DNA from: Vectrevirus T205P4
Sequence record: OZ035727.1
Length of the DNA: 44,005 bases
Direction: 5' to 3' (one strand)
A model generated the notes under the pieces. The model was not told the DNA's origin, did not search any database, and saw only the letters and a program-made list of their open reading frames with translations. Positions 5,974 to 39,635 of the stretch are shown piece by piece (positions within the stretch are counted from its first letter, which is position 1; every line of letters starts with the position of its first letter). A program made the translations under genes and the position numbers.

Positions 5974-7632
5974 ATGCTACAACGATTAAGTTCTTCACTA
6001 GTGAAGCACAAGAGCAAGCTAATAGGCGCTACCTATAGGCTGCTTGGTGATAAACTTTTAGAGCTAAATAGTGTATCAGATTTTGGTGCAATACCAAATC
6101 TTGAAACAGATAGTACTAATTCCATTCAAGCTGCAATTGATGCGACCCCGTCTGGTGGTACTCTAGGCTTCTATGGTGGGCCTTATAGATTTGGTACTGT
6201 TACAGTGGATAAACCAATTACACTAGTTGGAGATGCAGATTTGCAGTTTGAGTGCATTCGTATCAAGACAAGTAAGTTTCGTAGTTTCTTGACAGGAACA
6301 CTAACTGCTGCGAGATACGACAGTGCATGTCGTGCATTTCAAATCTTAGCCTATGAAGATGGGCAAGATTATGAGGACATCAAGGTACATGGTGCACGTT
6401 TCGAGGGTTTCTTCTATAACACAGACTTCCGAGGCCGCTCTTACGATGCGTCAGAAAGTGATCCTGCTAACAGAGTGGTTCGGGATACCTCTATTATGGG
6501 CTGTACTTCAGTTCAGCCTAAAGATGGTAAAGACAGAGGGCACTTTCAACACGTAGGTGTAACCAATGCCAAATGCATAGGTAACTCAACGTATGGCGGC
6601 AAGAATGCCACTTCTTATAACTTCATTAATGGTAATGGCTCTTTGGTGGTTATGGGTAACTATGACCATGACAATGAATATGGCTCATTAGAGATTGAGA
6701 ATAACAAGATAAGCTATGGTGTGGTTACTGGTAATATCTTCCATAAACAACTATGGATAGATGATACTAGCAACATTAATGTAATAGGTAACACCTGCAC
6801 AGATAGGATTTACATTACTGCACAATCTAACAACTCTGAGAACGTATCAGTAGTGGGAAACAATGTACCACGCATCTACGTCAGTAAGTTTGGTCAAAGC
6901 CCAACAGGTCGTCACCGTAACTTGACCATACGTGGTAATCATATCACTGGCAAGGATGTTCCTAACTGTATATTCTTAGACGATTCTGTGGATTCCGCTT
7001 CTATTGAGGGTAATGATTGTTATGGTGTATCTGGTGTTAGAGGCATAGCCATTACTCGTCATGCAGATGCTAACCATACAGTGCGTCATAATAACTTACA
7101 TGGCACTAACTTGCTCTTTAGTGGTTCGGGTGGCAAAGTTTATAGTTATGACAACTTTGATGTTGGAGTTGATGAATCACCTGTGACAGACAGAACTGAC
7201 GCAGTGCACATTGACAACCTTCTTCGTGTAAATGATGAGTACCTTGATTTGCCAGGAAAGTACCTATACAAATCTAAGTATACAAGAGACATTACACAAG
7301 GAGGCTCCACCACTATTGAGTTACCTATAACCACAAGTGGTACTTTGGCTTTTCGTGGTATTAGTTTATGGGTTCTTATCCGTAACACTTCTACTGGTAA
7401 CTTGTCTTCTTATCGTGTCGATGGAAGACATGCAGTAAGTGGTTCTTCTGTGACTGTTAGTTTTGGAGAGAAGTATGGGGTATTAGGGGTGAATACTGGT
7501 GATGTTACTATTAGTAATGATGCCTCTACGACTAATCTTATTCGTATCAAGGTAAGCAATGAGCATGTAAGTCAGACAATGCAGGTCACAGTTGTACCAG
7601 AGGTAACAAGCAGATTGGGAACTGAAGAGTAA
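5974..7632 (+). CDS. Tailspike protein 2 (552 aa), right-handed beta-helix (pectate-lyase-like) receptor-binding/depolymerase protein
   Basis: AAGGAGG RBS; repeated VxGN/NxxxG beta-helix rungs (VIGNTCTDRIYIT, VVGNNVPRIYVS, IRGNHITGKD); second spike gene directly after spike 1, as in K1-5/SP6-type phages. Confidence 0.85.
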   Translation: MLQRLSSSLVKHKSKLIGATYRLLGDKLLELNSVSDFGAIPNLETDSTNSIQAAIDATPSGGTLGFYGGPYRFGTVTVDKPITLVGDADLQFECIRIKTSKFRSFLTGTLTAARYDSACRAFQILAYEDGQDYEDIKVHGARFEGFFYNTDFRGRSYDASESDPANRVVRDTSIMGCTSVQPKDGKDRGHFQHVGVTNAKCIGNSTYGGKNATSYNFINGNGSLVVMGNYDHDNEYGSLEIENNKISYGVVTGNIFHKQLWIDDTSNINVIGNTCTDRIYITAQSNNSENVSVVGNNVPRIYVSKFGQSPTGRHRNLTIRGNHITGKDVPNCIFLDDSVDSASIEGNDCYGVSGVRGIAITRHADANHTVRHNNLHGTNLLFSGSGGKVYSYDNFDVGVDESPVTDRTDAVHIDNLLRVNDEYLDLPGKYLYKSKYTRDITQGGSTTIELPITTSGTLAFRGISLWVLIRNTSTGNLSSYRVDGRHAVSGSSVTVSFGEKYGVLGVNTGDVTISNDASTTNLIRIKVSNEHVSQTMQVTVVPEVTSRLGTEE

Positions 7633-11467: not shown

Positions 11468-14095
11468 ATGCAAGACTTACACGCTATTCAACTTCAACTT
11501 GAAGAAGAAATGTTTAACGGCGGTATCCGTCGCTTTGAAGCGGACCAACAACGCCAGATTGCATCCGGTAATGAATCAGACACGGCATGGAATCGCCGCT
11601 TATTGTCTGAGTTAATCGCGCCAATGGCTGAAGGCATTCAGGCATACAAGGAAGAGTATGAAGGTAAAAGAGGCCGTGCACCGCGTGCATTGGCTTTCAT
11701 TAACTGCGTTGAAAACGAAGTGGCAGCATATATCACGATGAAAATCGTTATGGACATGCTGAATACAGACGTTACCTTACAAGCCATCGCTATGAATGTA
11801 GCAGACCGCATCGAGGACCAAGTACGTTTTAGCAAGCTGGAAGGTCACGCCGCCAAATACTTTGAGAAAGTTAAGAAGTCACTTAAGGCAAGTAAGACTA
11901 AATCATATCGCCATGCGCACAACGTAGCGGTCGTGGCTGAGAAGTCTGTATCTGACCGTGACGCGGACTTTTCCCGCTGGGAGGCATGGCCCAAAGATAC
12001 CTTGTTGCAAATAGGTATGACACTGCTAGAAATCTTGGAGAATAGCGTATTCTTTAACGGGCAACCTGTTTTCCTCCGCACCTTGCGCACTAATGGCGGC
12101 AAACACGGTGTTTACTACTTACAGACCAGCGAACACGTTGGCGAGTGGATAACTGCATTTAAGGAACATGTAGCGCAGCTTAGTCCTGCCTATGCGCCTT
12201 GCGTCATCCCTCCGCGTCCGTGGGTGTCGCCTTTTAATGGTGGATTCCACACTGAGAAGGTAGCAAGTCGTATCCGTCTTGTTAAAGGCAACCGCGAGCA
12301 CGTACGCAAGCTCACTAAGAAGCAAATGCCAGCCGTTTACAAGGCTGTTAATGCTTTGCAGGCAACTAAATGGCAGGTTAACAAGGAAGTATTGCAGGTT
12401 GTTGAAGATGTAATTCGTCTCGACCTTGGTTATGGTGTGCCTTCCTTTAAGCCGCTTATCGACCGCGAGAACAAGCCAGCTAATCCAGTGCCGTTAGAGT
12501 TCCAGCACCTGCGAGGCCGTGAACTTAAAGAGATGCTAACGCCGGAACAATGGCAAGCCTTCATCAACTGGAAAGGCGAATGTACCAAGCTGTATACCGC
12601 TGAAACTAAGCGCGGCAGCAAGTCGGCGGCAACCGTTCGCATGGTCGGGCAGGCCCGTAAATACAGCCAGTTTGACGCAATATACTTCGTGTATGCACTG
12701 GATAGCCGTTCGCGCGTTTATGCGCAATCTAGCACGCTCTCGCCGCAATCAAACGACCTAGGCAAGGCGTTACTGCGTTTCACCGAAGGGCAGCCTCTAA
12801 ATAGCTCTGAGGCGCTTAAGTGGTTTTTGGTGAACGGGGCGAATAACTGGGGTTGGGATAAGAAAACCTTTAACGTGCGCACCGCTAACGTGCTGGATGG
12901 TGAATTCCAAGACATGTGCCGCGACATTGCAGCCGACCCGCTGACCTTCACTCAATGGGTGAATGCAGATTCACCTTATGGCTTTCTTGCGTGGTGCTTT
13001 GAATACGCGCGTTATCTGGATGCACTGGATGAAGGAACACAAGATAAATTCATGACGCATTTACCAGTACATCAAGATGGTAGTTGTTCTGGTATCCAGC
13101 ACTATAGCGCGATGTTACGCGATGAAGTAGGTGCGAAAGCGGTAAACCTCAAGCCGTCAGACGAGCCGCAAGATATTTATGGGGCCGTTGCGCAAGTAGT
13201 TATCCAGAAAAACTATGCTTACATGAATGCAGATGATGCAGAAACTTTCACATCTGGAAGCGTAACACTTACAGGTGCAGAACTGCGTAGCATGGCTGGC
13301 GCGTGGGATATGATAGGTATCACTCGCGGCTTAACCAAAAAGCCGGTAATGACCTTGCCTTACGGCTCCACCCGCTTAACCTGCCGTGAGTCAGTGATTG
13401 ATTATATCGTTGATTTGGAAGAAAAAGAGGCACAACGAGCTATTGCAGAAGGGCGGACGGCGAATCCTGTTCACCCTTTTGATAATGACCGCAAAGATTA
13501 CCTGACACCGGGCGCAGCTTACAACTATATGACTGCTTTAATTTGGCCTTCTATCTCTGAGGTTGTTAAAGCTCCTATAGTGGCGATGAAAATGATTCGC
13601 CAGCTTGCACGATTCGCAGCTAAAAGAAACGAAGGGCTAGAGTACACCTTACCTACTGGTTTCATCTTGCAACAAAAGATAATGGCTACCGACATGCTAC
13701 GCGTATCCACTTGCTTGATGGGTGAAATCAAGATGAGTCTACAGATTGAGACTGATGTAGTGGATGAAACGGCAATGATGGGCGCTGCCGCTCCTAACTT
13801 TGTTCACGGGCATGATGCTAGTCATCTCATCCTGACTGTATGTGACCTCGTTGACAAGGGCATTACATCTATCGCAGTCATCCATGATTCCTTTGGTACT
13901 CATGCAGGCCGTACAGCAGACCTGCGGGATAGCTTAAGGGCAGAAATGGTGAAGATGTATCAAGGTCGTAATGCTCTGCAAAGCCTGTTAGATGAGCATG
14001 AGGAGCGCTGGTTAGTAGACACCGGAATCCAAGTGCCAGAGCAAGGGGAGTTTGACCTTAACGAGATATTAGTATCTGACTATTGCTTTGCATAA
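11468..14095 (+). CDS. Single-subunit DNA-dependent RNA polymerase, SP6-type, 875 aa
   Basis: N-terminus [32 protein letters not shown]... and C-terminus ...[10 protein letters not shown]...DYCFA match my recollection of SP6 RNAP; conserved catalytic region [18 protein letters not shown]. Confidence 0.97.
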
Positions 14096-14103
14096 TATTG
14101 ATA

Positions 14104-14133
14104 GGCCATTCCTTCGGGAGTGGCCTTTTCTTT
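14104..14133 (+). terminator. Terminator hairpin after the RNAP gene (GGCCATTCC-TTCG-GGAGTGGCC then TTTTCTTT)
   Basis: 9-bp stem with UUCG tetraloop and a U-tract. Confidence 0.7.
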
Positions 14134-14167
14134 ACCTGATACCTGTAACATTTCATTAACATAAACT

Positions 14168-14183
14168 GTCTCACACGTGAGAC
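14168..14183. repeat. 16-bp palindrome GTCTCACACGTGAGAC, copy 1
   Basis: Perfect inverted repeat, 2 nt upstream of promoter P3. Confidence 0.8.
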
Positions 14184-14184
14184 T

Positions 14185-14208
14185 CATTTACCGGACACTA
14201 TAGGAGAA
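14185..14208 (+). promoter_or_regulatory. Phage RNAP promoter P3 (CATTTACCGGACACTATAGGAGAA)
   Basis: Consensus match; first of two tandem promoters between RNAP and primase genes. Confidence 0.7.
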
Positions 14209-14260
14209 ACCATCGGAGATGGGAAAGAGAAGGAAGATAAAGGTAATAAAAGGCTATAAA

Positions 14261-14320
14261 GGAAGTAATAGGTATCAAAGGTTATATAGGTTTACCTAGG
14301 AATACCTATTACCTTCTTCC
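14261..14320. repeat. Purine-rich segment with inverted repeat (GGAAGTAATAGGTAT ... ATACCTATTACCTTCTTCC) in putative replication origin
   Basis: About 11-bp perfect arms separated by 26 nt, embedded in AG-rich / CT-rich flanks that are themselves roughly complementary. Confidence 0.5.
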
Positions 14321-14361
14321 TTCCTCTTATTACTACTTAGAGGAAAGGGCAGACTTAGGTT

Positions 14362-14377
14362 GTCTCACATGTGAGAC
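14362..14377. repeat. 16-bp palindrome GTCTCACATGTGAGAC, copy 2
   Basis: Perfect palindrome, 4 nt upstream of promoter P4. Confidence 0.8.
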
Positions 14378-14381
14378 TTCG

Positions 14382-14405
14382 TATTTACCGGACAGTATAG
14401 ATAAG
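14382..14405 (+). promoter_or_regulatory. Phage RNAP promoter P4 (TATTTACCGGACAGTATAGATAAG)
   Basis: Consensus-like with CAGTATAGAT variant; precedes the gp1.1-like and primase/helicase genes. Confidence 0.6.
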
Positions 14406-14430
14406 ACTAACTCACTTTGGAGATTTAACT

Positions 14431-14559
14431 ATGCGTAACTTTGAGAAGATGACCCGTAAAGCTAATCGTTTTGACATGGAAGAAGGGCAGAAGAAAGGCA
14501 AGAAGCTGAACAAACCTGTCCGCGACCGTGCATCTAAACGCGCTGCGTGGGAGTTCTAA
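14431..14559 (+). CDS. T7 gp1.1-like small basic protein, 42 aa (MRNFEKMTRKANRFDMEEGQKKGKKLNKPVRDRASKRAAWEF)
   Basis: GGAGA RBS; same length and same MRNFEKMT... start as I recall for T7 gp1.1; below track cutoff. Confidence 0.65.
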   Translation: MRNFEKMTRKANRFDMEEGQKKGKKLNKPVRDRASKRAAWEF

Positions 14560-14562
14560 GTT

Positions 14563-16551
14563 ATGGCTATTATTCAGAATGTACCGTGTCCTGCCTGTCA
14601 AAAGAATGGACATGATGTTACCGGCAACCATCTCATGATCTTTGATGATGGTGCTGGCTATTGCAACCGTGGTCACTTCCACGATAACGGAAAGCCATAC
14701 TACCATAAGCCCGAAGGTGGCATCGAGATAACCGAGTTGCCTATTACTGGCAATATCAAATATACACCTTCTCAGTTCAAAGAGATGGAGAAGGAAGGGA
14801 AGATAAGCGACCCTAAGCTACGCGCCATCGCACTTGGTGGTATGCGTATGAAAGACCGTTGGGAGGTTATGAATGAGCAAGAAAGGGCAGACCAAGAAGC
14901 AGAGTGGAAACTTGATGTTGAATGGTTCCTCACGCTTAAGCGTAAGAACCTTGTATCCCGACACATTCGCGGCGACATCGCAGCACTATATGATGTGCGA
15001 GTGGGCCATGATGAAGAAGGAAGAGTCAATCGTCACTACTACCCCCGCTTCGAGAAAGGTGAGCTAGTAGGCGCTAAGTGCCGTACCTTACCTAAAGACT
15101 TTAAGTTTGGTCATTTAGGTAAACTATTTGGTATGCAAGATCTTTTCGGTATGAATACTTTGTCTCACGTGTTAGACAAGGGAAGACGAAAGGATTGCTT
15201 GCTTATCGTAGGCGGCGAACTTGATGCACTAGCAGCCCAGCAGATGCTTCTTGATTCCGCCAAGGGCACTAAGTGGGAAGGACAACCATATCATGTGTGG
15301 TCTGTCAACAAGGGTGAGTCTTGCCTTGAAGAGATAGTGCAGAACCGTGAACATATCGCTCAATTCAAGAAGATTATATGGGGCTTTGATGGGGATGAGG
15401 TTGGGCAGAAGCAGAACCAACAAGCGGCTCGCCTGTTTCCTGGTAAATCCTATATCCTTGAGTATCCTTCTGGGTGTAAAGATGCTAACAAGGCATTGAT
15501 GGCTGGCAAGGCTAAAGAATTTGTGGATGCTTGGTTTAATGCCAAGTCATCTGATGAAGTCTTTGGTAGCCAGATTAAATCTATCGCATCTCAAAGGGAT
15601 AAGCTCAAGGCTGCACGTCCCGAGCAAGGATTGTCATGGCCTTGGCCTAAGCTGAACAAGGTAACGCTAGGTATTCGTAAGAACCAGCTTATCATTGTAG
15701 GTGCAGGGTCTGGTGTAGGTAAGACTGAGTTCCTTCGTGAAGTAGTTAAGCACCTCATTGAAGAACACGGTGAATCTGTAGGCATCATTTCTACAGAAGA
15801 CCCGATGGTCAAGGTGTCCCGTGCTTTTATCGGCAAGTGGATTGATAAGCGTATTGAGTTACCGCCAACCAACGACCCGAAAGAAGATGGATACCGTGAG
15901 GTGTTCGACTACACCGAGGAAGAAGCTAACGCCGCCATTGATTATGTAGCTGATACAGGTAAGCTGTTTGTAGCTGACCTAGAGGGTGACTATTCGATGG
16001 AAAAGGTAGAGCAAACTTGCCTAGAGTTTGAGGCTATGGGCATTTCTAATATCATCATTGATAACTTAACGGGGATTAAATTAGATGAGCGTGCTTTTGG
16101 TGGGAAGGTTGGTGCACTTGATGAATGCGTCAAGCGGATTGGTACTATCAAAGACCGACACCCGGTTACTATATTCCTTGTATCACACCTTACACGTCCT
16201 CCGGCAAACCGTACCCAACACGAAGAAGGTGGCGAAGTTATCCTTTCTGACTTCCGAGGCTCAGGAGCTATCGGATTCTGGGCATCTTACGCCTTGGGGA
16301 TTGAGCGTAATACAAGAGCTGAAACGCTTGACGAAAGGACTACCACGTACATCTCATGTGTCAAAGACCGCGACCAAGGTATCTGGACTGGAACCAAGGT
16401 CATGCTTAAGGGTGACATTCAAACCGGACGTTTAATGGAACCACAAGCCCGTACTAAGTCATTTGATACAGGTGAAGCAAGGCAACAAGAAGTACCAGAT
16501 TTACCGGACACTATAGAAGAGACTAACTTCGATGAAGAAAGTGAGTTCTGA
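14563..16551 (+). CDS. DNA primase/helicase (T7 gp4-like), 662 aa
   Basis: N-terminal Cys4 zinc ribbon (CPACQKNGHD...CNRGH), helicase Walker A GAGSGVGKT, acidic C-terminus ...FDEESEF ending in Phe as in T7 gp4. Confidence 0.93.
   Translation: MAIIQNVPCPACQKNGHDVTGNHLMIFDDGAGYCNRGHFHDNGKPYYHKPEGGIEITELPITGNIKYTPSQFKEMEKEGKISDPKLRAIALGGMRMKDRWEVMNEQERADQEAEWKLDVEWFLTLKRKNLVSRHIRGDIAALYDVRVGHDEEGRVNRHYYPRFEKGELVGAKCRTLPKDFKFGHLGKLFGMQDLFGMNTLSHVLDKGRRKDCLLIVGGELDALAAQQMLLDSAKGTKWEGQPYHVWSVNKGESCLEEIVQNREHIAQFKKIIWGFDGDEVGQKQNQQAARLFPGKSYILEYPSGCKDANKALMAGKAKEFVDAWFNAKSSDEVFGSQIKSIASQRDKLKAARPEQGLSWPWPKLNKVTLGIRKNQLIIVGAGSGVGKTEFLREVVKHLIEEHGESVGIISTEDPMVKVSRAFIGKWIDKRIELPPTNDPKEDGYREVFDYTEEEANAAIDYVADTGKLFVADLEGDYSMEKVEQTCLEFEAMGISNIIIDNLTGIKLDERAFGGKVGALDECVKRIGTIKDRHPVTIFLVSHLTRPPANRTQHEEGGEVILSDFRGSGAIGFWASYALGIERNTRAETLDERTTTYISCVKDRDQGIWTGTKVMLKGDIQTGRLMEPQARTKSFDTGEARQQEVPDLPDTIEETNFDEESEF
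16498..16521 (+). promoter_or_regulatory. Phage RNAP promoter P5 (GATTTACCGGACACTATAGAAGAG), inside the 3' end of the primase/helicase gene
   Basis: Perfect consensus copy about 30 nt before the helicase stop codon. Confidence 0.7.
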
Positions 16552-21093: not shown

Positions 21094-21150
21094 GTTATAC
21101 TCAAGGTCACTTACGAGTGGCCTTTATGAATAACTTAACTGGAGAGTATT

Positions 21151-21411
21151 ATGATTAAATCACAGAAGTATTTCTCAACTAAAGATCGTAAGGTAGGTTT
21201 TGAAATCAAAGTTTGGGAAGACGGACACATTACTATTATTTACGAAGGTAAAGGTTCTAATGGTATGATGCTACGTAGATGCCGTACATTCACAAAGAAA
21301 GAATGTATGCATATGTCTGAATGCATGTTTCTTTACATCATTGCTGATGATATTAAAGGTATGAAGCTAATTGTATCTCTACCTTTAATACCTAAATCTT
21401 TGTTAGGTTGA
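21151..21411 (+). CDS. Hypothetical protein, 86 aa
   Basis: GGAGAG RBS. Confidence 0.55.
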   Translation: MIKSQKYFSTKDRKVGFEIKVWEDGHITIIYEGKGSNGMMLRRCRTFTKKECMHMSECMFLYIIADDIKGMKLIVSLPLIPKSLLG

Positions 21412-21433
21412 TTTACTGGACACTATAGAAGGA
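21410..21433 (+). promoter_or_regulatory. Phage RNAP promoter P6 (GATTTACTGGACACTATAGAAGGA)
   Basis: Consensus copy overlapping the stop of the 21151 gene. Confidence 0.8.
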
Positions 21434-21497
21434 AAGCCTAGGTAATCTAGGTTTATAAGGTAGTATGGGTAATTAAGTAAATATAGGAGATATAAAT

Positions 21498-21875
21498 ATG
21501 TCAATGGTAACTACTCTGGTATTTGTAGCTCAATACTTTCGTGGTCTGGCTAATAAGTTCAAATCCAAGGCTATCAAAGCTATTGAGTCTCGCATCGAGG
21601 CAGTACAGGCAGAGCAAGTTAAAGTTGAAGAACATCGTAGTTCTCAAATGATTGACTGTCATAACCGCTACTATGCATCTCGTGATGAACTAAATGCACG
21701 TCAAGTCAAAGAGGTAGAAGATATGCTGGCACGTCACCAGCAAGAGCGTGACAGCCTGAAAGCTGAATTTGAAGAGAACAAGGCATCAATTGCTCTTGTA
21801 AATCAAGCTGCATCTGACAGCCTGAAGAAAGAGATTGTTATGCTGGAAATAGAACTGGACAACTTGACTAAATAA
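21498..21875 (+). CDS. Hypothetical membrane-anchored coiled-coil protein, 125 aa
   Basis: AGGAGA RBS; N-terminal hydrophobic segment then charged heptad-like region. Confidence 0.6.
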   Translation: MSMVTTLVFVAQYFRGLANKFKSKAIKAIESRIEAVQAEQVKVEEHRSSQMIDCHNRYYASRDELNARQVKEVEDMLARHQQERDSLKAEFEENKASIALVNQAASDSLKKEIVMLEIELDNLTK

Positions 21876-36687: not shown

Positions 36688-39635
36688 TGGCAATTGAGCG
36701 ACAAGCAGTACAAGGTCTGCCACAAGTGCAGGCCACTTCTCCTAATGTCATGACCTTTGCACCTCAGCGAGTTGGAGGTGTGGAGGCTGGCGTAGCTTCT
36801 ACCTCCGGTAGTCGATTTATCGAAGACCTTATTCGAGCAGCCAGTAGTGTAGCTGATGTAACCACTGGTATCCTTAATCAAAAGATTGAGGAAGATAAGG
36901 TTGTTCAAATGGAACGGGCATATAACGGATTAATGCCTTCTGAGGATGCAACTCGTGGTGGCGCTCGTGCTAACATGCTTGTCAAAGCTCAACTGCTAGC
37001 TAATGATGAAGCAGCACGAATGAAAGACATGGCTACTCGTTTCCAAGGAACGGATGACGAGTGGACACAACTTATGGTTGACTCTCGTAATGAGATGCAG
37101 AATAAGCTGTTCCAGCAATACCCTGAGTTGCAAGGTGACAAAGATACTATGCGTATGGTCACTAATGTCTTCCAAGAACAGCAGCCTCAGATTTGGGCTA
37201 CACGAACCCAGCATAAACTTGACCGTGAACAAGCAGACCGTGAGGATACCTTTGACGGGCGAGTGGCTTCTACTTGGGATTCTAATATTGACCCTGAAGC
37301 CTCTGGCTATGCTTTACAGGAACGAATCCGCGAAGGTCTTACTCAAGGATTACTACCTGAACAGATGCACAAGAAGTTAGTCCAGCGAGCAATTTCACTT
37401 GCACAAGGCGGTGATGTTAGCATGGCTGAAGCCCTGAAGTATGTGAAGGACGATAAGGGTGTTTCTGTTTATGCTAAGAATCCACAGCTTATCACAGCCA
37501 TCACTAGTGGTAATGCAGTTTGGGCTAGGAATAATGTAGCTGATGTAACTCGTATGTCTTTCGAAGTTAAAGAATCCTACCTTGCAGGTGATTTAACTGA
37601 TGAAGAATTGTTGGAACGAGCACAGCACATTAATAATCTGACAGGTAACTCTGTCTTCTCTAATCCAGAGCTAGAGGCACTGATGCGCCAACGGGCTAAG
37701 CAGAATGCAGAGCTAGGTGCAATGCAGGATATGCGACGTGAGCTTTACTCCGACCGCCTGACTGGCTTCCAAGGTAAGACTGATAAAGAGAAGAAGGCTT
37801 ACATTGATGTTATCAAACAAGATAGCCAACTTTATGCAGACCAGCAAATCAAACAACGTGGCTTGGACCCTTACAGTCAAGAGGCTGAAGCTATTCGTGG
37901 TGCAGTGGAAGTGCAGCGCCTACAATTCATGAACTCCAAAGGCTTAGTGGATGATACCTTTGAGTCTCGTATCAAAGCCATGGAATCTATGCTATCGCCT
38001 GAGCACTTTGCCAAGGGCGAACCACAAGAGTTGATGACTATTCGCCAGTTGTGGGAACAGTTGCCAGAAGAGAGCCGAGGTGTCTTTGGTGACACGGTGA
38101 ATGGCTACATGGATAACTACAACACTGCACTACAAATGGGAGAGACACCTTTGCAGGCTGCAAGGTTTGCGCGTGAAGCACAGCAGAAATTCTCTCGTAC
38201 TGAGAAGGAAACCAAGAAGTTCAACTCAGCTATTGGAGAGGCACTGGATGAGGTGTCTGGTGCTGGCTGGTTTGATGGTAAAACCGAAGTGTCAGACTTA
38301 GGTAAAGCTATTGCGGAAGAAGAGTTACGAGCTAAGGCCAATATGTTGTGGTCTAGTGGTATGCGTAACATGGATTCCATCAAGAAGGCTTTAATTACTT
38401 GGGGCAATAAACGCTACACTCAATCAGAGGATGCAAAGACTTCCGGTGGCTATTTCATTAAAGGTGATTACACTTCTGCATCTGATATGCTTATGTCAGT
38501 TGGGAAAGGCGTAAACCCTACCGATGTACCTCTGGCGCTTGGTAGGTATGTAGAAACACAGATGCCAGAATTGAAGAAGGAGCTTCAAGAGTGGGAAACT
38601 AAAGATGATATATACATTGATTACAATGAACAGAAAGGAACTTTTGTGATTCGTGCTGGTGCAGCAGGTCGCCCTCTTTCTGGAGTAATCCCTGTAACCT
38701 CTTTAGATACTACTTCACTACTAGATTCTGCCTATCAGAAGAAAGTAGAGGAACGAGATAAAGGCGAGTATGTTCACCCGTATCGTACAGATATTGGTGC
38801 ACAAGAGCCTATGCCAGCTAAACCAACTGCCAAAGATATTGGTAAATTTGGACTAGCTAACTTCCTCATGTCTTCTGCTTTTGCTTCTGGTGAGAATCTG
38901 CCTTCTAACTTCGAGATTAACTATCGAGGTAATATGCAACAATTCTATGACAAGCTAGCTATGGATGAGAATAAAGATAAAGTTGGCTTTAATAAGGCAA
39001 CTGGAACCTTTACTCCATATAAAGACGCTCACGGTGAGTCTATCGGTTACGGTCATTTCTTAACGGAAGAAGAGAAGCGAAACGGGTATATTAAGATTGG
39101 CGATGAACTAGTTCCCTATCGAGGGTCTATGTCTCAGCTTACAGAGAGCAAGGCTCGCGCCCTTATGGAGCAAGATGCTAAGAAGCATGTGCCTCCTACT
39201 CGTGACTGGAAGATTCCGTTTGACCAGATGCATCCTGCACAGCAACGTGGCTTGATGGATTTAACCTACAATTTAGGTAAAGGTGGAATCCAGAACTCAC
39301 CGCGTGCTCTTGCTGCATTCAAAGCTGGTAAGCTTACGGAGGGTTTTATCGAAATGCTGGGCACTGCATCAAGTGAAGGTAAGCGTATTCCTGGCCTACT
39401 GAAGCGACGCGCTGAGGCATACAATATGGCATCTGCTGGTGGTGTGCCTAAGATTACCGAAGTGGAGACTCGTGAAGATGGCTCCATGTGGGTTAGGTTT
39501 GGTGGACCTATGCCAGCAGGTTCTGTCTCGGCATGGACTCATAAACGTATTGGCGCGGATGGTTGGTATCAGGTTTATGAGGCTGCACCTACCAAGTTAG
39601 CTAAAGGTTCTAAGGTAGGTAAAGTTAAGTTGTAG
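36687..39635 (+). CDS. Internal virion (ejection) protein with C-terminal lysozyme-like peptidoglycan hydrolase domain, 982 aa
   Basis: C-terminal region ESIGYGHFLT ... LMDLTYNLGKGG ... GKRIPGLLKRRAEAY resembles T4/lambda-type lysozyme folds. Confidence 0.8.
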   Translation: MAIERQAVQGLPQVQATSPNVMTFAPQRVGGVEAGVASTSGSRFIEDLIRAASSVADVTTGILNQKIEEDKVVQMERAYNGLMPSEDATRGGARANMLVKAQLLANDEAARMKDMATRFQGTDDEWTQLMVDSRNEMQNKLFQQYPELQGDKDTMRMVTNVFQEQQPQIWATRTQHKLDREQADREDTFDGRVASTWDSNIDPEASGYALQERIREGLTQGLLPEQMHKKLVQRAISLAQGGDVSMAEALKYVKDDKGVSVYAKNPQLITAITSGNAVWARNNVADVTRMSFEVKESYLAGDLTDEELLERAQHINNLTGNSVFSNPELEALMRQRAKQNAELGAMQDMRRELYSDRLTGFQGKTDKEKKAYIDVIKQDSQLYADQQIKQRGLDPYSQEAEAIRGAVEVQRLQFMNSKGLVDDTFESRIKAMESMLSPEHFAKGEPQELMTIRQLWEQLPEESRGVFGDTVNGYMDNYNTALQMGETPLQAARFAREAQQKFSRTEKETKKFNSAIGEALDEVSGAGWFDGKTEVSDLGKAIAEEELRAKANMLWSSGMRNMDSIKKALITWGNKRYTQSEDAKTSGGYFIKGDYTSASDMLMSVGKGVNPTDVPLALGRYVETQMPELKKELQEWETKDDIYIDYNEQKGTFVIRAGAAGRPLSGVIPVTSLDTTSLLDSAYQKKVEERDKGEYVHPYRTDIGAQEPMPAKPTAKDIGKFGLANFLMSSAFASGENLPSNFEINYRGNMQQFYDKLAMDENKDKVGFNKATGTFTPYKDAHGESIGYGHFLTEEEKRNGYIKIGDELVPYRGSMSQLTESKARALMEQDAKKHVPPTRDWKIPFDQMHPAQQRGLMDLTYNLGKGGIQNSPRALAAFKAGKLTEGFIEMLGTASSEGKRIPGLLKRRAEAYNMASAGGVPKITEVETREDGSMWVRFGGPMPAGSVSAWTHKRIGADGWYQVYEAAPTKLAKGSKVGKVKL

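Follow-up and report, generated by a model that had tools for sequence, protein, structure and literature searches.

Does the non-coding DNA between the RNA polymerase (RNAP) gene and the gene 1.1 homologue of Vectrevirus T205P4 contain the counterpart of the primary replication origin of T7? In T7, replication starts at the promoters phi1.1A and phi1.1B, and a T7 promoter is required by every T7 origin (PMC8373140). The original prediction for this locus was that of a primary origin with the T7 arrangement, and we examined it in the 44,005 nt of record OZ035727.1 (hereafter the window), from a genus of the K1-5/SP6 group, in comparison with related phages and with T7. In our view the segment is a reasonable but unproven origin candidate, and not a new kind of element. 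That it represents the Molineuxvirinae (SP6/K1-5 group) counterpart of the T7 gene 1-gene 1.1 control region, with T7-like origin firing, is the reading that we prefer, tentatively and at a little under even probability.

The upstream ORF matches Pfam RNA_pol (E = 2e-89) and RPOL_N (E = 1e-31), the gene 1.1 homologue has a Shine-Dalgarno sequence (GGAGA, 14419-14423) and the N-terminus MRNFEKMT in common with T7 gp1.1, and the primase/helicase carries the same annotation in the records of relatives. From 5' to 3', the RNAP gene and gene 1.1 are separated by a terminator, a palindrome, the promoter P1, a 5' stem-loop, eight AGG units of about 10 nt, inverted copies of these units (the two sets together forming a hairpin of about 100 nt), a second palindrome and the promoter P2 (Table 1), and every one of these parts lies above chance expectation. 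The layout is kept in at least six Molineuxvirinae lineages, also where the promoter sequence differs: the architecture is present in Vectrevirus, Zindervirus, the Klebsiella phages, Proteus phage Pm5460, Lelliottia phage phD2B and Pectobacterium phage PP1, with a change in promoter specificity. All the features originally described were found, at offsets of no more than 1-2 nt.

Table 1. Features of the RNAP-gene 1.1 region and its flanking genes (positions in the window).
Feature	Position	Strand	Basis or remark
Phage single-subunit RNA polymerase gene (T7 gene 1 counterpart)	11468..14095	+	875-aa ORF
Predicted intrinsic terminator: 10-bp stem, UUCG loop, T-run	14103..14134	+	Terminator scan
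Non-coding block TACCTGTAACATTTCATTAACA	14140..14161	+	Near-identical in Vectrevirus, Zindervirus and Klebsiella phages
16-bp palindrome, copy 1 (GTCTCACACGTGAGAC)	14168..14183	.	2 nt upstream of P1
Predicted promoter P1, -17 to +1, 'ACCGG' subclass	14186..14203	+	18-mer, 0 mismatches
Predicted 5' stem-loop of the P1 transcript (CCATC-GGA-GATGG)	14210..14222	+	Predicted in every fold
Eight AGG units of about 10 nt (consensus about GTAATAGGTA)	14223..14300	+	AGG every 9-10 nt
Predicted long imperfect hairpin, RNA or DNA inverted repeat	14225..14328	+	Direct and inverted units
Pyrimidine-rich inverted unit copies (ATACCTATTACCTTCTTCCTTCCTCTTATTAC)	14302..14335	+	Inverted repeats I1, I3, I7, I13
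16-bp palindrome, copy 2 (GTCTCACATGTGAGAC)	14362..14377	.	5 nt upstream of P2
Predicted promoter P2, off-consensus, G at -5	14383..14400	+	18-mer, 1 mismatch
Gene 1.1 homologue, 42 aa	14431..14559	+	Pfam Phage_1_1, E = 8e-16
Primase/helicase gene (T7 gene 4 counterpart)	14563..16551	+	Pfam DnaB_C, E = 1e-14, and Toprim_2

The promoter 18-mer has 11 matches in the window, against 0.04 expected, and the two promoters first placed at 14185 and 14382 correspond to P1 and P2. With a spacing of 197 nt they are the sole close promoter pair of the window, where the next smallest spacing is 691 nt, and the same pair is found in SP6 at 6118 and 6287. All relatives have an equivalent of P1, with a promoter sequence that varies by lineage, and in the Pm5460 record it is annotated as a promoter. 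The G at -5 of P2 is present in all Vectrevirus sequences and in Pm5460, and other P2 variants have T at -1 (SP6, Klebsiella phages), G at -1 (phD2B) or C at -6 (L025). On the strength of the sequence match, P1 and P2 are predicted to be promoters of the phage's own RNAP, the kind used by T7-type origins, with putative starts at G 14203 and G 14400, that of P1 following the SP6/T7 promoter convention. The start codon of gene 1.1 is 228 nt from P1 and 31 nt from P2, so that merely supplying this gene with an upstream promoter does not require P1. The published SP6 and K1-5 sets of Scholl et al. 2004 and Dobbins et al. 2004 are likely to include P1 and the remaining consensus promoters already, and probably the palindromic hairpins too.

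Upstream of P1, the terminator expected after the RNAP gene was recovered by the terminator scan as a hairpin at 14103-14126 followed by TTTTCTTT. Its pairing is kept despite different stems in SP6, cp4, PST_H2, BP12B, Pm5460, phD2B and PP1, the loop in relatives is always TTCG or TCCG, and the T-run is always present; comparison of eight relatives thus shows the GC-rich stem, tetraloop, T-run and stem covariation of an intrinsic terminator, and record MK373771 has a terminator annotated at the equivalent of 14103-14134. The conserved non-coding block that follows is in part complementary to an AGG unit (repeat I5).

The palindrome (GTCTCACAYGTGAGAC) occurs at eight sites in the window, for 0.33 expected matches, and the SP6 ortholog of copy 1 is GTCCAACGTGTTGGAC. 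Copy 2 is terminator-like in the terminator scan, where it is followed by TTCGTATTTA, and is retained by RNAalifold, with both-side changes in 6-8 sequences; the palindrome before P2 is missing in Pm5460, phD2B and PP1. The association of palindrome and promoter that had been pointed out is valid for P1 and P2, but not as a general companionship, since only three of the 11 promoters have a palindrome within 50 nt upstream and five of the eight palindromes are away from any promoter. We rejected the palindrome as a promoter part, because its spacing to the promoter varies (2, 5 or 15 nt) and most copies lie elsewhere. Sister copies form 13-bp hairpins directly after genes, with covarying flanks, and as + strand RNA these are 5-9 kcal/mol more stable. 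The eight palindromes are hairpin sites scattered over the window at conserved positions and probably act as phage-RNAP terminators or attenuators, with copy 2 as a possible stop or pause for P1 transcripts. Seven SP6-RNAP terminators are described in the SP6 genome, the nearest of them only 14 bp from a start site (Song et al. 2024, PMC11347151); the positions of the palindromes fit this statement, suggesting that they may be the published terminators.

The RNA expected from P1 has a 5' stem-loop in which the third pair is G-C, A-U or C-G depending on the phage, a compensatory change with three variants, and in which the loop is GAA in phD2B and PP1. The AG-rich and then CT-rich segment initially noted beyond it is indeed biased, with 78% purine over 14223-14290 and 35% over 14291-14345, and the most purine-rich 70-nt stretch of the window (81%) starts at 14202, but the segment is more than compositional, being an array of units with AGG at 14231, 14241, 14251, 14260, 14270, 14279, 14288 and 14298. 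In shuffles, 0.03 chains of at least four units are expected, and the window has one other such chain, which starts at 21430 and has four units; no chain lies on the - strand. TRF gives periods of 9, 10 and 19, and the period of 9.3-9.6 bp is near one helical turn. The array has 6-8 units in SP6, the Klebsiella phages and Pm5460, and 3-4 in phD2B and PP1; its first 60 nt contain 3% C in the window and are near C-free in five lineages. Similar arrays follow other promoters (21430 in the window, 12559 and 37792 in SP6), and AGG/TAGGT motifs with flanking inverted units are found at further promoters of the window (21381-21475 and 2291-2310). An iteron-type origin, with direct repeats of 17-22 bp and a nearby initiator, was rejected because the degenerate units of 9-10 bp are too short and no Rep-like or initiator gene lies near the array, whose neighbours are the RNAP, gene 1.1 and primase/helicase genes. 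A CsrA-type GGA sponge was also rejected, since neither the GGA motifs nor the GGA loop are conserved. On reading the sequences, A-tracts are seen in the Vectrevirus units and none in those of SP6; A-tract bending was not retained.

The inverted units are invariant in nine of nine aligned Vectrevirus sequences. The 11-bp inverted repeat proposed within 14261-14320 has exact arms, GTAATAGGTAT at 14265-14275 and ATACCTATTAC at 14302-14312, which extend to 17-nt arms with 88% complementarity. The long hairpin, which encloses these arms, has a predicted helix of about 25 bp (MFE -31.9 kcal/mol, z = -2.2), and compared with half-preserving shuffles z is -3.3 in the window and -2.4 to -6.2 in six of six lineages. 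Helices of 20 bp or more are predicted throughout the lineages, those of Pm5460 and phD2B being longer, and each lineage has its own exact complementary pair of 9-14 nt, such as GTAATAGGTAT/ATACCTATTAC, AGTAATAGGAAGTA/TACTTCCTATTACT and CCTAGGTAATACA/TGTATTACCTAGG. The register is not conserved between lineages, and the cross-clade RNAalifold consensus recovered only the 5' stem-loop and the palindrome, the long hairpin being absent from it. In three Vectrevirus sequences (L017, L018, L019) the 5'-arm substitutions mostly break pairs, according to our own reading of the alignment and not a tool tally. Since the + and - strands fold about equally (-32.0 and -30.1 kcal/mol, some 2 kcal/mol apart), an RNA-level and a DNA-level inverted repeat are indistinguishable. 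No Rfam family scored above its gathering threshold, the only hits being generic miRNA-precursor hairpins at 14-23 bits with cut-offs of 50-99.

With regard to strand opening, AT-rich DNA directly follows P1 (GC 0.31-0.33 over 14223-14345); P2 is followed by just 31 nt before the ATG and no AT-rich stretch. The GC minima of 0.27 (60 nt) and 0.31 (100 nt) are in the lowest 0.2-0.5% of sequence windows and are not unique, as at least four other promoter-downstream regions (2258, 16595, 17285 and 21123-21500) are equally or more AT-rich, with the extreme, here as in SP6, downstream of the DNA polymerase gene. In duplex instability the array ranks 5th in the window and 4th in SP6, and in both phages the least stable duplex is downstream of the DNA polymerase gene. 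The 80 nt from 14193 are the most RNA:DNA-hybrid-favouring stretch of the window (-16.7, against a mean of -3.5 with sd 3.7), but the SP6 homologue is at the 10th-65th percentile, so that this bias is not conserved, and phD2B and PP1 lack the purine bias. R-loop thermodynamics was rejected as a general argument, given that the nearest-neighbour hybrid-minus-duplex optimum of the window is not kept in SP6. Cumulative and detrended GC skew gave no origin signal: the skew is positive throughout and monotonic, as expected with all genes on one strand, and the detrended minima disagree (19471 in this phage, 6690 in SP6). We found no origin mapping or replication data for SP6-group phages in the literature searched, the SP6 and K1-5 genome papers being outside its scope; a garbled, second-hand sentence in PMC4837284 has Dobbins et al. 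2004 placing the SP6 origin near the DNA polymerase gene.

At the level of sequence, the synteny with the T7 primary origin is real. T7 has, after gene 1, phi1.1A (5848), the R1.1 hairpin, phi1.1B (5923) and then 84 nt at 29% GC before gene 1.1 (6007). The segment studied here likewise adjoins the 3' end of the RNAP gene on one side and the gene 1.1 homologue on the other, and has two tandem phage promoters with a hairpin between them; its distance from the left end is about 13-14% of the genome for K1-5 and SP6, and 14.6% for T7. P1 shares with phi1.1B the promoter-to-transcript junction CACTATAGGAGAA (initial transcribed GGAGAA) and non-coding DNA of about 30% GC downstream, which is 123 nt long (0.33) here and 84 nt long (0.29) in T7. 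In contrast to T7, the AT-rich block is between the promoters, in the position of R1.1, and not after both, the inter-promoter distance is 180 nt instead of 58 nt, and the segment has a periodic AGG array with inverted copies, an intrinsic terminator, the 16-bp palindromes and a P2 that leaves just 31 nt before the ATG; what comes after gene 1.1 is here the primase/helicase gene, and in T7 genes 1.2-3.8. Of the claim that the arrangement is the same as in T7, the position, the only tandem promoter pair, the AT-rich DNA after P1 and the conserved layout hold, but the promoters enclose the AT-rich block, and the site is not distinguished by being AT-rich.

Between P1 and P2, the transcript would contain an irregular double-stranded hairpin of about two helical turns beside a phage promoter, as does the T7 RNase III site R1.1, whose long irregular hairpin is transcribed from between phi1.1A and phi1.1B, and by reading the sequences we found ACCTTCTTCC in the 3' arm of both. 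Beyond this 10-mer no sequence homology with R1.1 is detectable, and unlike R1.1 the present hairpin is about twice as long, built of repeats and lineage-dependent in register, with a cleavage that is only putative. Another class of systems to compare is that of R-loop or transcript-primed origins, such as ColE1 RNA II, T4 oriF and oriG, and the mitochondrial light-strand promoter/CSB region. In these, as possibly here, a promoter fires into DNA on whose pyrimidine-rich template strand a purine-rich transcript could remain paired, but in this case the bias is not kept in SP6, phD2B and PP1, and the segment bears no sign of RNase H processing.

These analyses show the sequence features, their departure from chance, the synteny with T7 and the conservation; promoter activity, start sites, any RNA processing and the whole replication role of the segment are what we infer, as follows. 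Early transcription by the host polymerase would end at the terminator at 14103-14134, and the newly made phage RNAP would start at P1, the first phage promoter downstream of its own gene. The P1 transcript would comprise about 180 nt of AT-rich non-coding RNA, with the 5' stem-loop, the AGG array, the inverted copies and the palindromic hairpin, and gene 1.1 and the primase/helicase would be expressed from the weaker P2 and by read-through from P1. In the mechanism that we consider most likely, RNA synthesis that enters the readily melting array from P1 would open the duplex and leave an RNA 3' end in the way of the T7 primary origin; the end may lie at a site of slowed polymerase movement, either the long hairpin or palindrome copy 2. 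The phage DNA polymerase would extend this end rightward, and the primase/helicase would load on the displaced strand and give rise to the leftward fork. The P1 RNA would double as a structured leader, with possible processing of the T7 R1.1 kind at the long hairpin.

It is also possible, if on balance doubtful, that the segment acts at the transcript level only, in that it gives the middle (DNA-metabolism) operon a structured 5' leader. This RNA would then be stabilised by the 5' stem-loop, the AG/CT hairpin would be an R1.1-like processing site, probably for host RNase III, palindrome 2 would attenuate P1, and the dosage of gene 1.1 and primase/helicase would depend on P1 and P2 jointly; replication would start elsewhere or at any promoter preceding AT-rich DNA. 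The conservation of the 5' stem-loop, the lineage-specific arms and the hairpin palindromes does point to a structured RNA, and a T7-type origin needs none of them, which we counted against the origin. The helix predicted in every lineage, the folds that surpass their shuffles in all six, the three compensatory variants of the stem-loop, the sister hairpins with their covarying flanks and + strand preference, and the motifs with inverted units at other promoters argue in the same direction, as does the location of T7 R1.1 between two promoters. Against this stand the variable register with its absence from the cross-clade consensus, the mostly pair-breaking substitutions, the nearly equal folding of the two strands and the lack of an Rfam match, and the unit sequence and its 9-10-nt period are conserved beyond the needs of a processing hairpin. 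A leader would in any case be compatible with origin function, because T7 has both in the same place.

We consider it unlikely that the stretch from P1 to palindrome 2 is a dedicated, conserved non-coding RNA unit or DNA array, that is, an undescribed cis or trans element of SP6-group phages within a wider system of similar arrays and eight 16-bp hairpin sites, half-site co-evolved between genera, which could provide a primer RNA designed for the firing of the origin, or a repeat RNA that binds a factor of host or phage. A discrete non-coding RNA, which we find quite improbable, would come from a self-contained transcription unit of about 175 nt and act in trans, for example by sequestering an RNA-binding protein of host or phage, or as a dedicated primer RNA. 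A promoter, no conserved ORF and a terminator-like hairpin with a U-rich tract would suit such a unit, as would the fit of the palindromes to the seven SP6-RNAP terminators (PMC11347151), the units conserved in sequence and spacing on the + strand only and the near C-free first 60 nt in five lineages. However, three relatives lack the palindrome before P2, efficient termination at palindrome 2 is doubtful because its stem has only 6-7 bp and its U-tract is poor, the CsrA-type motifs vary, the Rfam search matched no known sRNA family, and the identity of the palindromes with the published terminators is conjectural. In a DNA-level array, to which we assign just as little probability, the direct and inverted AGGTA units of about 10 bp would be iteron-like sites at which a protein of the phage or the host binds DNA and organises or regulates the two promoters or the replisome, or else phased recognition sites of the phage primase on the displaced strand. 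This agrees with the conservation of unit sequence and not of pairing alone, the near-helical period, a unit number that varies as in repeat arrays (8, 7, 6, 3-4) and the presence of both unit orientations around promoters (14140-14149 and 14265-14277; 21381-21398 and 21437-21475). The T7 primase site is given as (G/T)GGTC in the abstract of PMC12839067, and TAGGT appears to resemble it save for the last base. The C-poor + strand of the array would leave little room for a T7-type GTC primase trinucleotide. Against such an array are the shortness and degeneracy of its units and the absence of an initiator or Rep-like gene nearby, and since the period is below 10.5 bp the sites would move off one helix face over eight units; moreover, the arrays are found only on the transcribed strand right after starts, which fits RNA equally.

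Phages of the SP6/K1-5 type are sources of RNA polymerase and promoters, and serve as therapeutic and engineering chassis. If the segment is an origin, as we prefer to read it, it would have to be retained when such genomes are minimised or rebooted, and it could be used for RNAP-driven replicons orthogonal to T7. If it is an RNA leader only, its value would be for annotation, since the primase/helicase gene would be preceded by an attenuator-like hairpin, a possible RNase III site and a P2 that is conserved and weak. What the T7 and SP6 lineages have in common in the interval from the RNAP gene to gene 1.1 is a hairpin and a promoter firing into AT-rich non-coding DNA; they differ in the order of the parts and in the repeat array.

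As to coding potential, the original statement that the segment has no ORF of any length is correct for conserved ORFs, but one ORF of 26 aa exists at 14219-14299. This sole candidate for a hidden small gene was rejected, its ATG being missing in K1-5, SP6 and other relatives; the ATG arises from a compensatory stem variant that the relatives lack. In some records, 'hypothetical proteins' annotated on the minus strand overlie the terminator and the start of gene 1.1.

The segment at 14104-14430 separates the RNA polymerase (RNAP) gene from a homologue of T7 gene 1.1, and all the elements listed for it in the original prediction (terminator, promoters, palindromes and purine-rich inverted repeat) are present and non-random. 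About 70 Vectrevirus phages (Autographiviridae, Molineuxvirinae), including K1-5, mutPK1A2, CrRp3 and ACG-C91, match 601 bases around the segment at 92-94% identity, and the intergenic part can be aligned with SP6 and other Zindervirus phages at ~68% identity and with Klebsiella phages at 72-74%. We consider it very likely that in the SP6 group this segment is the homologue of the control region between T7 genes 1 and 1.1.

Features of the segment, its neighbourhood and the compared genomes (window coordinates unless another genome is named)
Feature	Position	Details
Single-subunit RNA polymerase gene	end 14095	875-aa ORF
Terminator-like hairpin and T-run	14103-14134	
Palindrome 1	14168-14183	
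Promoter P1	14186-14203	predicted start 14203
5' stem-loop	downstream of predicted P1 start (G at 14203)	CCATC-GGA-GATGG, 13 nt
AGG array	14223-14300	
Inverted units	14302-14335	
Palindrome 2	14362-14377	
Promoter P2	14383-14400	predicted start 14400
T7 gene 1.1 homologue	14431-14559	42-aa ORF; Pfam Phage_1_1, E = 8e-16
Primase/helicase gene	next after gene 1.1 homologue	662-aa ORF
16-bp palindromes, window	8618, 14168, 14362, 15162, 16573, 17750, 23295, 39653	n = 8
Palindromes, SP6 (L031)	493, 6093, 6264, 7071, 8547, 9383, 14255, 17752, 30569	GTCYAACRYGTTGGAC; n = 9
Other AGG/TAGGT unit sites, window	21381-21475, 2243-2320	
Other AGG/TAGGT unit sites, SP6 (L031)	12559-12600, 37792-37860	
T7 record	gene 1 end 5822; phi1.1A 5848; phi1.1B 5923; gene 1.1 6007	

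The promoter 18-mer ATTTACCGGACACTATAG, with 11 matches in the window versus 0.04 expected, is exact at P1 and carries one mismatch at P2 (G at -5), and the two form the only promoter pair in the window spaced by less than 690 nt. The palindrome GTCTCACAYGTGAGAC precedes both, by 2 nt at P1 and by 5 nt at P2. P2 departs from the consensus within -6 to -1 in nearly every lineage, by differing substitutions: the G at -5 is found in all Vectrevirus and in Proteus phage Pm5460, a T at -1 in SP6 and the Klebsiella phages, a G at -1 in Lelliottia phage phD2B, and a C at -6 in one further relative (L025). Such a pattern suggests selection of a specific promoter, probably one of lower strength, and not decay. 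The window promoters also fall into two subclasses, reminiscent of T7 class II and class III promoters: ATTTACCGG is confined to 14186, 14383 and 16499, the three promoters flanking the primase/helicase gene, and ATTTACTGG characterises the later promoters (3888, 21411, 23326 and 31471).

The third pair of the 5' stem-loop is G-C in most relatives, A-T in the window phage and some others, and C-G in one (L026). It is the A-T variant that supplies the ATG of a 26-aa ORF (14219-14299, product MGKRRKIKVIKGYKGSNRYQRLYRFT), the sole ORF of the segment, which had been predicted to hold none of any length; K1-5 and SP6 carry ACG at this position. The ORF lacks conservation and is almost certainly not a gene.

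As predicted, the region between the promoters is strongly asymmetric, with 78% purine over 14223-14290 and 35% over 14291-14345; the most purine-rich 70 nt in the window start at 14202, and the C content of the first 60 nt of the array is 3%. This composition reflects eight units of ~10 nt, with AGG each 9-10 nt and a consensus near GTAATAGGTA, the pyrimidine-rich part consisting of units in inverted copy. Chains of at least four such AGGs occur twice in the window, both on the + strand (the 8-unit array and a 4-unit chain at 21430), versus 0.03 in shuffles. The predicted 11-nt inverted repeat is exact (14265-14275 with 14302-14312), and is nested in 17-nt arms and in a larger imperfect hairpin at 14225-14328. 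Within the block, all lineages have two stretches of 9-14 nt that are exactly complementary, with a sequence particular to the lineage, and each lineage's core out-folds shuffles preserving the purine and pyrimidine halves (z -2.4 to -6.2), indicating that complementarity has been selected. The register of the hairpin is not conserved, cross-clade RNAalifold recovering the 5' stem-loop and the palindrome only. AGG/TAGGT units at 9-10-nt spacing were also observed downstream of other phage promoters: SP6 promoter 37773 is followed by a chain of 7 AGG units, window promoter 21411 has inverted units immediately upstream, and GGTTATATAGGTT is common to window 14279-14291 and 2295-2307.

The order of parts is kept in K1-5, SP6, UAB_Phi78, BP12B, Klebsiella phages cp4 and K1-ULIP33, Proteus phage Pm5460, Lelliottia phage phD2B and Pectobacterium phage PP1, and runs terminator, conserved block, palindrome, P1, 5' stem-loop, AGG units, inverted units, sometimes palindrome 2, P2 and gene 1.1. 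Among relatives sharing this layout the promoter sequence has changed together with the polymerase, the number of AGG units is 8, 7, 6 or 3-4, and the terminator stem varies in almost every lineage while retaining its pairing, UUCG-type loop and T-run. Only two of the parts may have gone undescribed so far, the periodically spaced AGG array and the set of co-evolving hairpins.

The T7 replication start is at phi1.1A/phi1.1B, secondary promoter-linked origins taking over upon its deletion, and every T7 origin requires a T7 promoter (PMC8373140). Together with the T7 gene and promoter coordinates, these facts indicate that the synteny with our segment is real, and P1 and phi1.1B share CACTATAGGAGAA across the promoter-to-transcript junction. 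The claim that the arrangement is the same as in T7 is nevertheless overstated: the synteny holds, as does the presence of a promoter directed into AT-rich, non-coding DNA between the genes for RNAP and gp1.1, but the order of parts differs. The AT-rich block lies between the promoters, where T7 has an RNase III hairpin (the 58-nt phi1.1A-phi1.1B interval, 48% GC, which folds as R1.1), whereas in T7 the 84 nt with 29% GC follow phi1.1B; P2 is only 31 nt from the start codon.

Whether the segment is also the primary replication origin, as originally proposed, we judge to be close to an even question, leaning slightly against. By analogy with T7, its position, the tandem promoters and the AT-rich transcribed block would favour an origin, as would the place of P1 as the first phage promoter met downstream of the RNAP gene and the location directly before the primase/helicase gene. 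This signature is not very specific: stretches downstream of the promoters at 2226, 16499, 17190 and 21411 are as AT-rich or more so, and the nearest-neighbour duplex stability of the array is the fifth least stable in the window and the fourth in SP6. A hybrid-minus-duplex score, used as a proxy for R-loop propensity, has its genome-wide optimum at the segment in the window and is unremarkable in SP6; the purine bias is absent from phD2B and PP1, and GC skew is positive throughout the window, with no inflection. In both genomes the least stable duplex and the highest AT content are found 3' of the DNA polymerase gene (window 21123-21500, which includes promoter 21411; SP6 12255-12650), in a region that is a rival origin candidate. 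Possibly this is what Dobbins et al. meant, who according to a second-hand, garbled sentence suggested a bidirectional origin at the SP6 DNA polymerase gene (PMC4837284); in the literature searched, this sentence is the sole hint we found on the SP6 origin location.

The main rival reading, in which the segment serves only as an RNA leader and carries an R1.1-like processing hairpin, we hold to be less likely than not; it is compatible with an origin, since the two are combined at the T7 site. The + and - strand folds of the long hairpin differ by only ~2 kcal/mol, so that the inverted repeat may act as RNA or as DNA. A discrete non-coding RNA and a DNA-level protein-binding array are minor alternatives.

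Comparison of the gene maps places seven of the eight window palindromes in intergenic DNA, and eight of the nine SP6 sites were judged orthologous in position, SP6 17752 being without counterpart. The half-site is clade-specific (GTCTCAC in the window phage, GTCCAAC/GTCTAAC in SP6), and one orthologous copy lies inside the primase/helicase gene (window 15162-15177; SP6 7071-7086), exactly 599 nt from the ATG in both, where the codon tracks the half-site: His (CAC; S-H-V-L-D) in the window phage and Asn (AAC; S-N-V-L-D) in SP6. This points to an internal site with a function, possibly attenuation between the primase-coding and helicase-coding halves. Three palindromes per genome, directly 3' of genes, form the cores of 13-bp hairpins whose flanks covary between the window phage and SP6 and whose + strand RNA is more stable by 5-9 kcal/mol. 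According to Song et al. (PMC11347151), SP6 carries seven terminators for its RNAP, of which the nearest to a start site is just 14 bp away from it; this statement fits the palindrome sites, which probably correspond to these terminators. We conclude that the palindromes are hairpin signals dispersed over the genome, which probably terminate or attenuate transcription by the phage polymerase, and that they are neither promoter components nor origin boxes. Palindrome 2 might stop transcription from P1 or make it pause, although three distant relatives lack it.

The RNAP/gene 1.1/primase junction is also a hot spot for HNH homing-endonuclease genes. One, apparently frameshifted and with a weak NUMOD4 match (E = 0.007), lies inside the hairpin loop of PST_H2 (L006, 637-1076), and another downstream of P2 in UAB_Phi78 (L007, 793-1203); the VEc3 record (H22) has one annotated within this stretch and the phD2B record (H91) one beyond a hypothetical protein 3' of the RNAP gene. 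The array/P2/gene 1.1 spacing therefore tolerates large insertions. The window itself appears to be a complete genome of ~44 kb in circularly permuted form: it opens with terminase and tail genes, its RNAP gene is shifted rightward by ~8.2 kb relative to K1-5, and the physical left end probably lies close to 8170. Finally, a 2759-bp database record labelled 'Lederbergvirus Sf6' (Y00105.1, H90) matches the post-RNAP terminator region at 86.5% identity, and possibly represents the RNA polymerase gene of an SP6-group phage, entered under a wrong organism name.
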